This document shows positions 2,046-62,547 of a stretch of DNA of 64,000 nt, in pieces (position 1 is the stretch's first letter; every line of letters begins with the position of its first letter). Origin of the DNA: Escherichia phage AV122. The stretch lies in sequence record OR352952.1. One strand, 5' to 3'. The position numbers were made by a program, and so were the translations under genes. The notes below the pieces were generated by a model that worked only from the letters and a program-made list of their open reading frames with translations, was not told the DNA's origin and did not search any database.

Positions 2046-2332
2046 TAGAACCTCATCTGAAAACCGTGCGATTTAACATTACCGCCACCAATATCAGAAA
2101 TGTTAATTTCACTCGCAATTGAAGGGTCAATGTCAATTTCACGATTGAGTTTAGTGATAGCTAAAGTATCGCGCCCATTTACAGTACGAAACTCTAAAGG
2201 ACAAACCACATCAACGTAGTTTTTAATCGATTCACTGGTAGGTTGCAAATGAGCAGGAAGGCCTTTGGGCGCCTTTGAGAAAACCACTTCGCAGAAGTTT
2301 TTACGGGTATCAAAATAAGTAGTCATAAACAT
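2045..2332 (-). CDS. hypothetical protein (start trimmed to ATG after intercistronic hairpin)
   Basis: ORF track start is TTG inside upstream gene; ATG at 2332 has GAGGA SD 7 nt upstream and follows hairpin at 2350-2363. Confidence 0.55.
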   Translation of the reverse strand: MFMTTYFDTRKNFCEVVFSKAPKGLPAHLQPTSESIKNYVDVVCPLEFRTVNGRDTLAITKLNREIDIDPSIASEINISDIGGGNVKSHGFQMRF

Positions 2333-2372
2333 AACATTTTCCTCAGTAAGGGGCCAAAGCCCCTCATTTATT

Positions 2373-3166: not shown

Positions 3167-3196
3167 ATACTATCACAAAGGAGCTATACTGTAAAC
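3167..3196 (-). promoter_or_regulatory. early promoter (sigma70-type)
   Basis: GTTTACA, 17 nt, TAGTAT on minus strand upstream of ORF ending 3139. Confidence 0.55.
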
Positions 3197-3215
3197 AACT
3201 TTATGCAATCTTTGG

Positions 3216-3244
3216 AAAATAAAAAAGGACTCCCGAAGGAGTCC
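3216..3244 (-). terminator. rho-independent terminator
   Basis: Hairpin GGACUCC-UUCG-GGAGUCC followed by U-run on minus-strand transcript. Confidence 0.55.
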
Positions 3245-3249
3245 TCAAC

Positions 3250-21553: not shown

Positions 21554-22471
21554 TCAAAATTCATTAATGCTATTAGTTAATTTAGAAAGACCCGCTTTTA
21601 CAAAATATGAATAAATTTTGCCACGCGGTGGTAATTTATATGAATTATAGTAATTCACAATGTTTGAAGCAATATTATCAGGAATATAATCAAAATCAAT
21701 TAGAACTAAATTTTCTTTATAACGATTATATTCAGATTCTGTGAGAAGCACCTTAGCTTGCTCACGGTCATTAGCAATAGCTTCAACGATTGAAGTTTTC
21801 ATTGAAGGAGTTCGTTCACCTTCAACTCTGGTAAACCAAAAGTCAGATCGTACTTTAACTGAAGCAACGTTATCCTTTTTGTCGCCTTTAAGGATTTTAG
21901 TCATACAGTCAATTTCAGCAGAACCGCTTTTAATTTTAACCCATTTCTTATGCATTGGTGACCATTGCTTAACATTTGGGTATTTATGAAGCTGTGTAAA
22001 GTCACCATCCGATGAAATGATTAAAATCTTATGTCCTTCTAAAGAGAACTTTTTAACAAGAACAGCAATGTGGTCATCTGCTTCATACTTATCAATATCC
22101 ATAACAATGTATGGCATATAAGCTTTCAATTCATCTATAACTTTATGACTAGATTCAAAATAACCTTCCCAGTCCCAAGTCGATTCTTCTCGTGCTTTTC
22201 CACGGTTTTTCTTATAATAATAAGCGAAATCACGACGCCAGTATCCAGATTTCGCGTTATCAATACACAGTACAATTTTAGTGTATCCAAGCGTTTTTGC
22301 TTTTTTGACATTAAACTTAATTGAGTTCAATATCAAATGACGAACCATTGATAAATTAATTTTTTCTTTATCTGGGAAGTTTACTAAAGCAGTTGAAAGC
22401 GCAATTTGACTAAAGTCAATAAAGCAAATTCCTTCTTTGTAATCTTCATCCAGCATCATTTCTAAATCCAT
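21554..22471 (-). CDS. rnh: RNase H (5'-3' exonuclease/flap endonuclease)
   Basis: 305 aa from ATG at 22471 (MDLEMMLDEDYKEG); track start is TTG inside promoter. Confidence 0.9.
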   Translation of the reverse strand: MDLEMMLDEDYKEGICFIDFSQIALSTALVNFPDKEKINLSMVRHLILNSIKFNVKKAKTLGYTKIVLCIDNAKSGYWRRDFAYYYKKNRGKAREESTWDWEGYFESSHKVIDELKAYMPYIVMDIDKYEADDHIAVLVKKFSLEGHKILIISSDGDFTQLHKYPNVKQWSPMHKKWVKIKSGSAEIDCMTKILKGDKKDNVASVKVRSDFWFTRVEGERTPSMKTSIVEAIANDREQAKVLLTESEYNRYKENLVLIDFDYIPDNIASNIVNYYNSYKLPPRGKIYSYFVKAGLSKLTNSINEF

Positions 22472-28305: not shown

Positions 28306-31300
28306 ATGGCTACTTTAAAACAAATACAATTTAAAAGAAGCAAAACTGCAGGTCAACGTCCTGCTGCTTCAGTATTAGCCGAAGGTGAATTGGCTATAAA
28401 CTTAAAAGACCGTACTCTTTTTACTAAAGATGACTCGGGAAATATTATTGATTTAAGCATTACCGCTGGCGGTAATATTAGTGGAAATATCACTCAAACT
28501 GGCGATTATACACAGACTGGAAAATTTAATTTAATTGGTCCGCAAATTGTAGCAAGCGGTGGATATATTGAGTTTAATTATCGTACTACTGGAAGTGGGG
28601 CTTGGTCCGGTCAACACACTGCAAAAGCTCCAATTTTTGTAGATTTAAGCTCAGCTACTTCCACATCTGAATATAATCCTATAATTAAACAGCGCTTTAA
28701 AGATGGTACTTTTTCATTAGGTACTTTAGTTTCTGAAGGTTCGTTGAAGATTCATTATATCAATGAATCTGGCGATTCGAAATATTGGACGTTTCGACGT
28801 GACGGCGGATTTACTGTTGACGGTGGAGGTTTAGCAGTATCAGGAGGTAGTATAACTACAACCGGAAATATTGCAGCTCTCGGAAATATTACTTCGCCTC
28901 AGATTAATACTAAAAATATTATTTTAGATACAAAAGCATTTGGACAATACGACAGTCAGTCTTTAGTTAATTACGTATACCCGGGCACCGGTGAAGAAAA
29001 TGGTATAAACTATCTTCGTAAAGTTCGGTCTAAATCAGGTGGAACTATTTACCATGAAATTTGTACAGCTCAGACTGGGCTAGCTGATGAAGTTTCTTGG
29101 TGGACTGGTAATACACCGTTATTTAAACTATACGGTATTCGTAACGACGGTAGAATGATTATTCGCAATAGCTTGGCCATCGGGACCGTGACTGAAGGAT
29201 ACCCGTCAAGCGATTATGGAAATACCGGGGTAATGGGAGATAGGTATTTAGCTATTGGCGATAATGCTTCTGGACTTAAATGGGTTCGTACTGGCGTTTA
29301 TGACCTGATGGCTAATGGTATTTCATCTGCTACCATTTTGAACAACGGTATTAACAGCACCAAGAAATTGATGGTTGGTTATAGTCGAGATTCCGGTTCT
29401 ACTTGGGATTTTCCAAATAACAACCAGGCAATGTTTACTGCGCGTACCGATGTTGATGGTAATAATAACGGTGATGGGCAAACTCATATCGGTTATAACA
29501 GTAATTCTAAAATGTATCACTATTTCCGTGGTGCAGGTCGTATGTCCGTTAGTATGGGCGATGGACTTCTTGTTGAGCCGGGTATTTTAGACATTAAAAC
29601 TGGGTCTAATAGAGTTGCTATTAGAGCAGATGGTACATTTGACTCAACCCAACGTATTTCTATGCGTACGGGCTTGTTTTTAAATGGTGATGATAATACT
29701 AATGCTTTATCGTTTAAAGCTCCTACCGGTGTTGACGGAACCAAAACCATTAACTGGGATGCAGGCACTCGTAACGGACAGAATAAAAATACTGTTTCAA
29801 TTAAAGCATGGGGTAATGCCTTTAACTCAGTTCCCGGTATTAGAGAAACTGTATTTGAAGTATATGATTCACAAGGTTATTATTTTTATTCACAACGCCA
29901 GCGCCCAGAAGGTTCTGAAACTGTTGGGCCCGTTGTAACCCAGTTCAATGGACCAGTTAATGCTAACGGCTCTATTAGCACTGCAGGAAATCTTAAAGTT
30001 GATGGTTTAAGCACTTTAAACGGTAATGTTACAATGAAGAACGGCTTGTTTGTCCAAGGTGGTTCTTCTATTACTGGGCAAGTTAAAATCGGCGGAACAA
30101 CAAATGCATTAAGAATTTGGAATGCCGAATATGGCGCTATTTTCCGTCGTTCAGAAAGTAACTTTTATATTATTCCAACCAATAAAAATGAAGGCGAAAG
30201 TGGAGACATTCACAGCTCTTTAAGACCTGTGAGAATAGGATTAAACGATGGCATGGTTGGGTTAGGAAGAGATTCTTTTATAGTAGATCAAAATAATGCT
30301 TTAACTACTATAAACAGTAACTCTCGCATTAATGCCAACTTTAGAATGCAATTAGGACAAAATGCTTATATAGATATTGAGGCTTCTGATGGAGTTCGCC
30401 CAACAGGTTGTGGTTCCTTTGCATCTCAGAATGACGTAAACGTCAGAGCTCCAATTTATATGAATATAGAGCGTACTGCTACTTCTGAATACATTCCTAT
30501 TGTTAAACAACGGTATGTAAAGGGTGATAGTACTTATTCTATTGGTACCTTGATTTCTCAGGGAGACTTCCGCGTCCATTATCACCAGGGAACTAGCACC
30601 AATGGCGTAGATTTGAGTTGGGAATTCCGTCGCACAGGCGATTTCCGCGCGCCAGGTAAAATTATTGCCGGTGCTGCTACTCTTGGCACGGATGGTAATA
30701 TTACTGGCGGTTCTGGTAACTTTGCTAACTTGAACACAACTATCGAATCATTAAAAACCGATATTGTTTCAAGTTACCCAATCGGTGCTCCTATTCCATG
30801 GCCAACGGATACTCCTCCTGACGGTTACGCTATTATGGAAGGCCAGACCTTTGATAAGTCTGCATACCCAAAATTGGCTATGGCTTACCCATCTGGCGTA
30901 ATTCCAGATATGCGCGGGCAAACTATCAAGGGTAAACCAAGTGGTCGTGATGTATTAAGTGCAGAAGCTGATGGTATTAAGGCTCATAGCCATAGTGCAT
31001 CGGCTTCAAGTACTGACTTAGGTACTAAAACCACGTCAAGTTTTGATTATGGTACTAAAACATCTTCAAGTTTTGATTATGGTACGAAGAACACTAATAG
31101 TACTGGTGGTCATACTCACTCTGTAAGTGGTACAACAAGTGCTGCTGGTGAGCATGCTCACCACTTAGGTCTGTTATTAGTTAACGGTGGTGATGCTTTG
31201 TACGGGTATACAACCGTTGGTAACAGCCTCCCTAGAACACTTGACTGGCTTGACAGAAGAGACAATAAATTCCCCAACACTAACACAACTGGTAACCATA

Positions 31301-31509
31301 CACATACATGGTCTGGCACTACAAGCAATGCTGGTGCTCATACACATACTGTAGGTATTGGTGCTCATACACATACTGTAGGTATTGGTGCTCATACTCA
31401 CTCGGTAGCAATTGGTTCGCATGGTCATACTATCACTGTAAATAGTACAGGTAATACAGAAAACACGGTTAAAAACATTGCTTTTAACTATATCGTTCGT
31501 TTAGCATAA
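28306..31509 (+). CDS. 37: long tail fibre distal subunit gp37 (receptor-binding tip)
   Basis: 1067 aa; C-terminal His-rich GxHxH repeats; tandem coding repeats. Confidence 0.92.
31021..31090 (+). repeat. tandem 30-nt coding repeat in gene 37
   Basis: GGTACTAAAA..AGTTTTGATTAT repeated 2.3 times, encoding GTKT[TS]SSFDY. Confidence 0.8.
31333..31440 (+). repeat. tandem 27-nt coding repeat in gene 37 (His-rich)
   Basis: GGTGCTCATACACATACTGTAGGTATT x2 exact plus two diverged copies, encoding GAHTHTVGI. Confidence 0.8.
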
Positions 31510-31539
31510 GGAGAGGGGCTTTGGCCCCTTCTAAATATG
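31508..31539 (+). promoter_or_regulatory. gene 38 translation initiation region with hairpin between SD and AUG
   Basis: AAGGAG at 31508-31513, stem-loop GGGGC-UUUG-GCCCC at 31515-31528, AUG at 31537. Confidence 0.5.
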
Positions 31540-32088
31540 AAAATATATCATTATTATTTTGACACTAAAGAATTTTACAAAGAAGAAAATTACAAACCGG
31601 TTAAAGGCCTCGGTCTTCCTGCTCATTCAACAATTAAAAAACCTTTAGAACCTAAAGAAGGATATGCAGTTGTATTTGATGAACGTACTCAGGATTGGAT
31701 TTATGAAGAAGACCATCGCGGAAAACGAGCATGGACTTTTAATAAAGAAGAAATTTTTATAAGTGAAATTGGAAGCCCGGTTGGTATAACTTTTGATGAG
31801 CCTGGCGAATTTGATATATGGACTGATGACGGTTGGAAAGAAGACGAAACATATAAGCGAGTTTTAATTCGTAATAGAAAAATTGAAGAATTATATAAAG
31901 AGTTCCAAGTTTTAAATAATATGATTGAAGCTTCTGTCGCCAATAAAAAGGAAAAATTTTATTATAAAAACCTTAAGCGGTTCTTTGCTCTTTTAGAAAA
32001 ACATGAGCATTTAGGTGGTGAATTCCCTGCATGGCCTGAAAAAGAACAGAAGCCTTGGTATAAGCGTTTATTCAAGCATTACGTATAA
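31537..32088 (+). CDS. 38: tail fibre assembly chaperone gp38
   Basis: 183 aa, MKIYHYYFDTKEFYKEENYKP recognised as T4-type gp38. Confidence 0.9.
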   Translation: MKIYHYYFDTKEFYKEENYKPVKGLGLPAHSTIKKPLEPKEGYAVVFDERTQDWIYEEDHRGKRAWTFNKEEIFISEIGSPVGITFDEPGEFDIWTDDGWKEDETYKRVLIRNRKIEELYKEFQVLNNMIEASVANKKEKFYYKNLKRFFALLEKHEHLGGEFPAWPEKEQKPWYKRLFKHYV

Positions 32089-35583: not shown

Positions 35584-35614
35584 AAAATAAAAAAGGGAGA
35601 GCCGAGGCTCTCCC
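35584..35614 (-). terminator. rho-independent terminator downstream of gene 52 operon
   Basis: Hairpin GGGAGAGCC-UCG-GCUCUCCC then U-run. Confidence 0.6.
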
Positions 35615-35619
35615 TAAAA

Positions 35620-37397: not shown

Positions 37398-37478
37398 TCA
37401 CTGGCGTCCGAAGACGCCTTTGGTTTTAAGATTGTTACGATAGAACTGCATCACGTGTTCGTTGTGGAAATTACTCAT
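37398..37478 (-). CDS. stp: Stp peptide (26 aa)
   Basis: Manual translation gives [26 protein letters not shown], matching my recollection of T4 Stp; ATG overlaps ndd stop (TAATG). Confidence 0.8.
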
Positions 37479-39840: not shown

Positions 39841-39865
39841 TTAAAACAAAAGGGCCGAAGCCCTT
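39841..39865 (-). terminator. rho-independent terminator
   Basis: Hairpin AGGGC-UUCG-GCCCU followed by UUUUGUUUU. Confidence 0.5.
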
Positions 39866-40063: not shown

Positions 40064-40095
40064 AATTTTCCTTAATGTGATAAGGGCCGAAGCCC

Positions 40096-41034
40096 TTATT
40101 TAAATTGTTCTGTAACGTCTTCAACTACTTCGTATTGGCAGGTACGCATTTTAGCATCGTTGTAATCAATCGGAATTGATACTACATCGCGAGGATGAAC
40201 TTTAACTTTTACAACTCGGCTGGTTGAACTGCCAAAGTGACGAATATAAGATTTAGAACACACATGCAGACCGCGAGAACAAGTTTGTGTATCATCGTCA
40301 TTCACACGAGTACGTGGCATTTTAACTACTTTACCCGGACTGTTATCAAAGGTGTTTGAGTGACAGTCAAAGTAATTGCTGCGAACTACTTTCCAAGCAT
40401 AGAAGTAACCATCTTCGGTGATTTCAATATCGTTTGCTACCAAGAAATCAAAGAGTCGAGATACCGCTTTTTGGCTTGGGTTTTCCAGCAGATTTTCCAA
40501 GAACGGAAAATAAAATTCAAAGTTTTCACCTTTTTCCATCGAGTCAAGAATACGATCAACCAAACCAGACCGCAATTCAATATTTTGATAGAACAAGCTT
40601 CCACCTTCAATTCGAACATCGCCGGAAATATATTTTTCAACAGCACGACGAACATTAATTTTTTGTGCCGCTTCTTCCAGCTTATCCGCTACAAGCAGAT
40701 TAAGAATTTCCTGGAAGTTTGAATGAGTATTAGGAGTTGCGTTATAAGTTACACCGTCAACAGTAATTGAAATGAATTTTTTAGATGCATTCCAAATAAT
40801 GTCAGATTTAGCAACTGGAGCAATAACTGCATCGCTATTAACTTTAACTGTAATGTCACCGCTAATAGTAACTTTAGGGCGTTTAGCTTCTTCAGCATTT
40901 TTCAAAACACGACGGATTGTGTCAACCGATACATCCTTCCAATAAGCCAATTCCTGTTGAGTGTAATTACCGCTTGAATACAGTTTAACAATTTCAGCTT
41001 GTTCGTTTTTGGTCAGGCATTTAATATTGTACAT
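40096..41034 (-). CDS. rIIB: rIIB protein
   Basis: 312 aa; MYNIKCLTKNEQAEIVKLYSSGNYTQQELA recognised. Confidence 0.93.
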   Translation of the reverse strand: MYNIKCLTKNEQAEIVKLYSSGNYTQQELAYWKDVSVDTIRRVLKNAEEAKRPKVTISGDITVKVNSDAVIAPVAKSDIIWNASKKFISITVDGVTYNATPNTHSNFQEILNLLVADKLEEAAQKINVRRAVEKYISGDVRIEGGSLFYQNIELRSGLVDRILDSMEKGENFEFYFPFLENLLENPSQKAVSRLFDFLVANDIEITEDGYFYAWKVVRSNYFDCHSNTFDNSPGKVVKMPRTRVNDDDTQTCSRGLHVCSKSYIRHFGSSTSRVVKVKVHPRDVVSIPIDYNDAKMRTCQYEVVEDVTEQFK

Positions 41035-45361: not shown

Positions 45362-45378
45362 AGAGGCCCGAAGGCCTT

Positions 45379-62190: not shown

Positions 62191-62547
62191 TTAAAAGAAT
62201 TTAAACTTTTTCTTTGATCTTTTATTAAATGCATCTTGTAGTTGCATTGTAATACATTTTTCTACATGAGGAGCTAACTCAGCTTTTCTTTCTTGGTCAA
62301 GAACAGCAAAGTCCATTACGACTTTTCCATCAACCCAATCTAATTTTGTCACATACACAATGTGTGTAGAACCATCTTCTAGTTTAATGACAATCTCCTG
62401 GATAACATTTTCCATGGCAGATTTAATTATCTTAAGAGATTCATTAAAAAGACGTTCTTTTCTTTCTTCTTCCCCCTCCGAAGAGGGGGATTCATCGATA
62501 ATTTCTAGATCTAAATCATCTTTATTCATTAAATTCTTCCATATCAC
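62191..62547 (-). CDS. 40: gp40-position protein
   Basis: 118 aa between uvsX and 41. Confidence 0.65.
   Translation of the reverse strand: MIWKNLMNKDDLDLEIIDESPSSEGEEERKERLFNESLKIIKSAMENVIQEIVIKLEDGSTHIVYVTKLDWVDGKVVMDFAVLDQERKAELAPHVEKCITMQLQDAFNKRSKKKFKFF

Follow-up and report, generated by a model that had tools for sequence, protein, structure and literature searches.

The split translation initiation region of T4 gene 38, and that of gene 25, was reportedly described by Gold in 1988 and by Nivinskas and co-workers in 1999, and the C(UUCG)G hairpins of T4 intercistronic regions, said to be 'extraordinarily stable', are credited to Tuerk and co-workers in 1988 (in PNAS 85:1364). At genes 38 and 25 of T4 the Shine-Dalgarno (SD) sequence is suboptimally spaced from the AUG, and an RNA structure in between brings the two to a workable distance (Uzan and Miller, 2010; PMC3014915), the gene 38 hairpin shortening the SD–AUG spacing from 22 to 5 nt (PMC3014915). 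Within this hairpin-bridged class destabilising mutations lower initiation (PMC3014915, which cites Nivinskas et al., 1999). CUUCGG hairpins are abundant in the intergenic regions of T4 and have varied functions there, including 5' stabilisation of gene 32 mRNA (PMC8948821, summarising Tuerk, 1988). A further described system is the PeSL cassette of T4-type phages, in which a terminator stem-loop is combined with an early promoter (Arbiol et al., 2010, PMC2839356; Comeau et al., 2014, PMC4122927).

The analysis reported here concerns two hairpins of Escherichia phage AV122 (record OR352952.1), one at the gene 37/38 junction on the + strand and one at the 30.7/30.6 junction on the − strand, both within the 64,000-nucleotide stretch of DNA that was analysed and that is called the window below. 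Both regions are near-identical to T4 and its relatives, in which gp37/gp38 and gp30.7/gp30.6 are annotated (the searches found 463 and 804 records of T4-like genomes), and the gene names used in the original prediction (37/38 and 30.7/30.6) agree with that annotation. The AV122 gene 38 hairpin is the known split translation initiation region of T4 gene 38 and as such is already published. Taking the two sites together, both hairpins probably (we would put it at about 0.8) belong to a stereotyped family of GC-rich UUCG-type tetraloop hairpins of T4-type phages and are used in different arrangements, the one at gene 38 as a bridge in a split site and the one at 30.7/30.6 as a generic element.

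The split initiation region of gene 38

Gene 37 (28306–31509, + strand), taken from the list of open reading frames, encodes the distal long tail fibre subunit; its product carries Pfam Collar and Phage_fiber matches towards the C-terminus and is gp37 in public records. Its stop codon (TAA, 31507–31509) overlaps the SD of gene 38, AAGGAG at 31508–31513 (+), which is invariant in seven distinct junction sequences from four genera. The hairpin A-GGGGC-UUUG-GCCCC-U (31514–31529, +) has 6 bp and a tetraloop and lies entirely between the SD and the AUG: GGGGC occupies 31515–31519, the loop (TTTG in the DNA) 31520–31523 and GCCCC 31524–31528, with an extra pair between A31514 and T31529. From the folded stem a single-stranded spacer of 7 nt, UCUAAAU (31530–31536, +), leads to the AUG at 31537–31539, which opens an ORF of 183 aa (31537–32088, +) for the T4-type tail fibre assembly chaperone; the corresponding position in T4 records is annotated as 'gp38 distal long tail fiber assembly catalyst'. 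As neither gp38 nor gp30.6 had a Pfam match at E ≤ 0.001, the identity of both rests on the annotated T4 records. Gene 38 starts 27 nt after the gene 37 stop. Counted from the final G of the SD to the A of the AUG the gap is 23 nt, and it falls to 7 nt when the 6-bp stem is closed. The original prediction, in which AAGGAG stood 23 nt from the AUG with GGGGC-UUUG-GCCCC in between, was therefore right in its anatomy.

The same prediction held that the stem would be stable, and the folding check supported this with a predicted free energy of about −11.2 kcal/mol and a probability of 0.99 for the G-C pairs in a 181-nt context. In the nearest-neighbour model the UUCG and UUUG versions are equal, at −11.2 kcal/mol each. 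It should be noted that in the 181-nt fold part of the gene 38 SD and the region of the AUG are partly paired, the folded state not being predicted as fully open, and that the minimum free energy of the 91-nt junction segment as a whole is unremarkable (z = −1.04). Neither an alternative SD nor a purine-rich motif was found in the 7 nt (UCUAAAU) that precede the AUG. Gene 38 has the features of a split SD site, namely a distant SD (more than about 15 nt), no alternative SD and a residual spacer within about 5–11 nt, together with a structure that is kept in relatives with compensatory change. On linear RNA the only SD of gene 38, at 23 nt, would be too distant from the AUG; folding of the 6-bp stem-loop would leave the 7-nt spacer, with which a 30S subunit could engage SD and AUG together. 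That the hairpin would enhance initiation of gene 38 is adopted from the T4 literature, while its anatomy, its predicted stability and its conservation with covariation are demonstrated here for AV122.

Comparison of the gene 38 junction in Tequatro-, Dhaka-, Mosig- and Gaprivervirus showed that AAGGAG is invariant and that the spacer after the stem is held at 7–8 nt across the genera, even where the length of the stem differs. All seven distinct sequences have a stem that is 100% paired, and in three of them one G-C pair is replaced by a compensatory A-U pair; this covariation concerns a single pair in three sequences, possibly from one event, and gives modest support. The loop varies among relatives (UUCG, UUUG, UUAG and UUCU). 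The T4 sequence reads AAGGAG-A-GGGGC-UUCG-GCCCC-UUCUAAAU-AUG, and the sole change in AV122 is a U in place of C in the loop. Among the records seen the AV122 segment is 100% identical only to that of Shigella phage SHBML-50-1, which is also the only other phage in which a UUUG loop was seen at gene 38. The claim that folding brings the gene 38 SD to normal spacing is thus upheld by the 7 nt that are left, by conservation in four genera and by the published interpretation of the T4 site (PMC3014915).

A different account of this junction would have gene 38 translated mainly by termination–reinitiation coupling with gene 37, the hairpin being merely a 3' stabiliser of gene 37 mRNA. The overlap of the SD with the gene 37 stop and a stop–start gap of just 27 nt would suit such coupling, as would the homologous stf-tfa pair of lambda and phiNP, which is coupled by an overlapping TAATG junction, and gene 38 is without a promoter of its own. 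No match to the late promoter consensus TATAAATA was found from 27601, upstream of gene 36, to gene 38, so that gene 38 is read from a polycistronic late RNA (36-37-38). The stf-tfa junction of lambda and phiNP is, however, without a hairpin, which makes the SD-plus-hairpin segment specific to the T4 lineage, and a strong AAGGAG that does not vary, combined with a post-stem spacer fixed at 7–8 nt across genera, is the pattern expected from selection on the folded spacing. As the published interpretation for T4 is also that of a spacing bridge (PMC3014915), we consider coupling as the main route unlikely.

The hairpin between genes 30.7 and 30.6

An identical stem had also been pointed out on the minus-strand transcript at 2350–2363, between two 30.x ORFs, and this was confirmed, the ORFs being 30.7 and 30.6. 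Gene 30.7 (2373–2738, − strand) is an ORF with a match to Pfam PF06919 (Phage_T4_Gp30_7, E = 5e-53) and the corresponding T4 annotation, and it ends in a TAA stop at 2375–2373. On the early RNA the order is stop codon (2375–2373), 8 nt, hairpin A-GGGGC-UUUG-GCCCC-U (2364–2349; 2349–2364, −), 4 nt, the SD GAGG (2344–2341; 2341–2344, −), 8 nt and the AUG at 2332–2330 of gene 30.6 (2045–2332, −), whose in-frame ATG gives a protein of 95 aa and a reading frame of the same length as the T4 gp30.6 CDS (288 nt). The hairpin is predicted to form here as well (P = 0.95 for the G-C pairs, 181-nt context). Gene 30.6 has a canonical SD past the hairpin, at 8 nt from its AUG and within the sequence TGAGGAAA that is invariant in 14 relatives, and the split-SD arrangement was looked for at this junction and is absent. 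With a canonical SD downstream there is nothing to be bridged and the 30.7/30.6 hairpin cannot be a spacing bridge. That this second hairpin does not stand between an SD and an AUG is a point that the original prediction had not seen.

Conservation at this junction was judged from 14 distinct sequences of Tequatro-, Dhaka-, Gapriver-, Mosig-, Karam- and Marfavirus and of IMG/VR contigs; protein-seeded scans of IMG/VR had yielded two loci for gp38 and 13 for gp30.6, and further relatives came from a phage GenBank collection. Over the 14 sequences 97% of the cells of the five core stem pairs are paired and three of the five pairs show compensatory changes. The covariation score was reached by no shuffle, and in slid controls at most 71% of cells were paired. 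The loops of the relatives are UUCG, UUUG, UUCA (in T4), UACG, GAAA and CGAA. An outer helix between the end of 30.7 and the start region of 30.6, which appeared in a single-sequence fold (z = −2.9) and suggested translational coupling, was rejected: a consensus fold of 12 relatives lacks it, and its AU and GU pairs show no covariation.

Could either or both of the hairpins be rho-independent terminators? This is how they have been labelled, the gene 38 hairpin as a 'putative transcriptional terminator, -11.80' in the record of phage MM02 and the 30.7/30.6 hairpin as a 'rho-independent terminator' (WebGeSTer, TransTermHP) in that of phage SA21RB, and other hairpins of the family that are followed by U-runs, at 3225–3246 in the window and after T4 gene 23 at 106504, do resemble true terminators. 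The tails on the sense strand are nevertheless not U-rich, either at gene 38 (UCUAAAUA, 3/8 U) or at 30.7/30.6 (UACUGAGG, 2/8 U), nor are the tails in relatives, and a terminator consensus scan called neither hairpin on the sense strand. Moreover, the next start codons lie 7 and 16 nt past the hairpins with no promoter between, so that complete termination would leave gene 38 or 30.6 unexpressed. Given the tails, the scan and the close downstream starts, it is improbable that the two hairpins are terminators; a literature search for transcriptome or terminator maps of T4 gave nothing directly usable.

On the opposite strand the picture differs at one site, where the consensus scan calls AGGGGCCAAAGCCCCT followed by CATTTATTTT (+ strand, 2349–2364), and one could propose that the 30.7/30.6 hairpin is a + strand terminator of antisense or late transcription. 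T4, JS98-like phages and L003 are T-rich there too when read on the + strand. This T-rich tail is largely the complement of a stop codon plus an AT-rich spacer, however, and it is lost in Mosig-, Karam- and Marfavirus; nor is there a late promoter consensus upstream on the + strand within the window. Termination of antisense transcription was rejected as the main function of this hairpin, as the tail is not conserved and no late promoter lies upstream in the window, and we hold this proposal to be very improbable.

A generic intercistronic structural element on the early 30.8-30.7-30.6 mRNA is most likely what the 30.7/30.6 hairpin represents. As a stable clamp it would hold long-range pairing away from the ribosome site of 30.6, and, like other T4 CUUCGG hairpins, it could shield the flanking mRNA from exonucleolytic or 5'-end-dependent decay. 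This role as stabiliser or insulator is what we infer as most likely by analogy with those T4 hairpins; the same observations would also fit pausing or weak termination, a signal for processing, or a neutral scar of recombination.

Two identical copies and the hairpin family

The 14-mer GGGGC-UUUG-GCCCC is found at 31515–31528 (+) and at 2350–2363 (−), and with up to two mismatches allowed these are exactly two occurrences in the window, compared with 0.04 in shuffled sequences (0/100 shuffles reached two). The identity common to both sites extends over 18 nt, GAGGGGCTTTGGCCCCTT, with no similarity beyond, and it ends at the edges of the potential stem. A scan of IMG/VR with the 14-mer TTTAGCATAAGGAG returned chance matches only. 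The idea put forward in the original prediction was that of a reused RNA structural module, and its most literal form would be that one module was duplicated or gene-converted between the leaders of genes 38 and 30.6 and has the same translational function in both. An 18-nt identity (GAGGGGCTTTGGCCCCTT) that includes the unusual UUUG loop at both AV122 sites would be accounted for in this way, and the UGAGG just 5' of the 30.7/30.6 stem superficially recalls the upstream SD of gene 38. The position of the SD largely refutes it, as 30.6 has a canonical, invariant SD on the 3' side of the hairpin. Nor is the UGAGG conserved, its place being taken by ACAGGGGC in L005 and L007. The identity also stops exactly at the edges of the structure, the GGGGC stem occurs at three further sites in T4, the T4 loops differ between the two sites (UUCG and UUCA) and the sites diverge independently in other genera. 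A single module with one function at both junctions is accordingly highly unlikely.

AV122 is a mosaic Tequatrovirus: its 30.7/30.6 segment is identical to that of RB3, RB5, phiD1 and many others and differs from that of SHBML-50-1, the phage with the identical gene 38 segment. In T4 the loop is UUCG at gene 38 and UUCA at 30.7/30.6, and a UUUG loop is common at 30.7/30.6 among relatives. In PhiZZ6 and JLBYU31 the 131-nt 30.7/30.6 segment is 100% identical to that of AV122, and hence has UUUG, while the gene 38 segment has one mismatch, a combination that also speaks against a single duplicated module; we infer that, as in T4, it is the base in the loop that differs. Stems differ between the two sites in other genera, with GGGAC/GUCCC at gene 38 and GGGAGC-CGAA-GCUCCC at 30.7/30.6 in Mosigvirus, and GGGAC-UUCG-GUCCC at gene 38 and GGGGC-GAAA-GCCCC at 30.7/30.6 in Gaprivervirus, so that the exact identity in AV122 reduces to a preferred stem plus independent single-base polymorphisms of the loop. 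Each site would carry its own C-to-U variant of a UUCG-type loop, and the stem GGGGC/GCCCC would be a shared preference. That the copies match exactly is peculiar to the AV122 genome and is not the mark of a dedicated shared module.

The preference itself can be seen at the level of the genome. There are 19 perfect GC-rich tetraloop hairpins in the AV122 window compared with 1.96 ± 1.39 in dinucleotide shuffles, and six UUCG loops where 0.01 are expected, all six reading UUCG on the minus strand. T4 has 50 perfect GC-rich tetraloop hairpins, 22 of them with UUCG loops, and among the inner stems AGGGC recurs six times and GGGGC five times, the latter after regA, at e.6/e.5, after hoc, at 30.7/30.6 and at 37/38. 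The arrangements in T4 vary: 9 of 23 hairpins have U-rich tails and are terminator-like, some of these then being followed by early promoters and hence PeSL-like (PMC4122927), at least 7 of the 23 are directly followed by a canonical SD and an AUG, as at 30.7/30.6, and an SD upstream of the hairpin is found only at gene 38.

A similar variety is seen among further members of the family in the window, the five given here all lying on the − strand. The hairpin GAGGACUCC-UUCG-GGAGUCCUU (3225–3246; T4 counterpart at 130346) is followed by a U-run and an early-promoter-like site and is a cassette of the PeSL type, whereas GGCGUC-UUCG-GACGCC (37403–37418; T4 counterpart at 165512) is followed 3 nt later by GAGGAAAAUAUG and has the architecture of 30.7/30.6. 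The hairpin AAGGGC-UUCG-GCCCUU (39850–39865) has a U-rich tail and has a 16-nt core in common with AUAAGGGC-UUCG-GCCCUUAU (40080–40099), which is followed by AAGGAAAAUUAUG, and AGGCC-UUCG-GGCCU (45364–45377) is intercistronic. A scan of the whole window against Rfam at gathering thresholds returned no family. Reuse of a structural module therefore stands in a generic sense, given the GGGGC stem with a loop of UUCG type at five T4 sites and the 22 UUCG hairpins of that genome, but it does not extend to a common task, since at 30.7/30.6 the SD is downstream and the job of the hairpin differs.

Comparison with described hairpin systems

PeSL (promoter-early stem-loop) cassettes, defined by a stem-loop, a U-run and an early promoter (TTTACW-N17-TAYWAT), resemble the gene 38 and 30.7/30.6 hairpins in that all are GC-rich stem-loops at gene boundaries, and the 30.7/30.6 hairpin in addition lies at a mosaic boundary, the gene that follows it varying from genus to genus. 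These features of a PeSL are present in the window at 3225–3246 and 35594–35615. At gene 38 and 30.7/30.6, in contrast, the stems are followed by neither a U-run nor a promoter, none lying between hairpin and next start, and at 30.7/30.6 the SD is within 4 nt. In Mosig-, Karam- and Marfavirus gene 30.6 is replaced by unrelated genes and the hairpin–SD cassette is retained. It is conceivable, if rather doubtful, that the hairpin downstream of 30.7 and the invariant ribosome site UGAGGAAA form a promoter-less counterpart of the PeSL, a recombination joint for exchange of the downstream gene; the persistence of the hairpin–SD unit while the gene behind it is swapped is compatible with a PeSL-like role in recombination, a mildly new angle that it fits and does not prove. 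Such exchanges, or gene conversion, could be the source of recurrent stems such as GGGGC/GCCCC at several loci. Inversions of the loop were also seen, in p000y at 30.7/30.6 and at 35594–35615 of the window relative to T4. If the reading as a recombination joint were true, such inversions would be a footprint of hairpin activity at the level of DNA.

Intrinsic terminators share with both AV122 sites a GC-rich stem-loop right after a stop codon, but at the AV122 sites the sense strand has no U-tract, and the next cistron begins at once with no promoter before it. Automated annotation labels both hairpins as terminators despite the missing U-tracts and the position within operons. As to the C(UUCG)G class, both AV122 hairpins are intercistronic, with a short GC-rich stem, a C-G closing pair and a four-base U-rich loop, and both show the intercistronic location and over-representation that mark the class. 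The defining UUCG is not literally present in AV122, where both loops are UUUG; the orthologous sites carry UUCG in T4 (gene 38) and, at both sites, in many relatives. With regard to mosaicism in T4-type phages, a few stereotyped stems are reused at many junctions and a hairpin-plus-SD unit is kept as the neighbouring gene is swapped, a comparative picture that extends known ideas and opens no new question.

Among mRNA structures that promote translation instead of impeding it, the hairpin of gene 38 is a standard case, and to this case AV122 adds the natural loop variant UUUG and some support from covariation, and no new biology. The reading of gene 38 with which this work began is correct but already known, and the 'reused module' holds only in so far as both hairpins belong to a family known since 1988. 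Set against the split region of T4 gene 38, the AV122 locus is orthologous and has the same SD, stem, spacer and AUG, the one difference being a single loop base (UUUG in AV122, UUCG in T4), whereas the same arrangement is absent from the hairpin at 30.7/30.6.

Conservation and annotation of the intercistronic hairpins

The junction downstream of gene 30.7 (window 2326-2364, minus strand), which holds the site 2 hairpin (2349-2364) between the 30.7 stop codon and the canonical 30.6 SD, was compared with the corresponding loci of relatives (L147, L149, L150, L151, L148 and the contig L003), and is a mosaic boundary. The gene that follows 30.7 bears no relation to 30.6 in Mosigvirus p000y, Karamvirus myPSH1140 and Pet-CM3-4, and Marfavirus MY02, and despite this a GC-rich tetraloop hairpin and UUGAGGAAAU are kept in all four. 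Contig L003 carries an early-promoter-like sequence in place of gene 30.7 and retains the hairpin, and in JS10, where 30.7 is missing, no hairpin stands immediately 5' of the 30.6 SD. Across two public records (MK373784.1 and OL960580.1) this hairpin and that at site 1, between the gene 38 SD and AUG (31514-31529, plus strand), are annotated as rho-independent terminators by terminator-prediction software, although both lack a U-tract and both lie within operons.

Related hairpins elsewhere in the window

At 3167-3246 (minus strand), between 30.9 and 30.8, GAGGACUCC-UUCG-GGAGUCCUU stands ahead of UUUUAUUUU, after which comes an early-promoter-like TTTACA-17-TAGTAT; this arrangement is a terminator-plus-promoter cassette of the PeSL (promoter-early stem-loop) type. 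A similar cassette is present at 35594-35615, where the 4-nt loop of the 9-bp hairpin AGGGAGAGC/GCUCUCCCU is inverted relative to T4 (MT984581, 163706-163727), the plus-strand loop being CGAG in the window and CTCG in T4. The loop of the site 2 hairpin is likewise CGAA in phage p000y as against UUCG in relatives, and in both cases the loop of a perfect palindrome seems to have flipped. Two minus-strand hairpins 230 nt apart (39850-39865 and 40080-40099) have in common an identical 16-nt core, AAGGGCTTCGGCCCTT, followed in one by a U-rich tail and in the other by AAGGAAAAUUAUG; the pair is a further example of one stem used in differing contexts. An 8-bp UUCG hairpin, UCCCCCUC-UUCG-GAGGGGGA, lies within a coding region at 62471-62490 (minus strand), and its T4 counterpart (22315-22334) is inside the gene 40 coding sequence, about 45 nt past the start of that gene and a short way 3' of the stop codon of uvsX.

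The gene 37/38 junction

The UUUG loop variant at site 1 creates a UUG codon within the hairpin loop (31521-31523, plus strand), 7 nt past the SD, which is absent from T4, where the loop is UUCG. This codon is out of the gene 38 frame, starts an ORF of 13 codons ending at a TGA (31560-31562), and is probably irrelevant. Nucleotide homology of window 31329-31509 with lambda stf (orf-314; segment 21793-21973, locus L145) and with the phiNP tail fibre gene (locus L146) extends as far as the stop codon of gene 37. In lambda and phiNP a TAATG overlap joins the fibre gene to its assembly gene, whereas T4-type phages have at this position a 27-nt untranslated segment with an SD and the hairpin.
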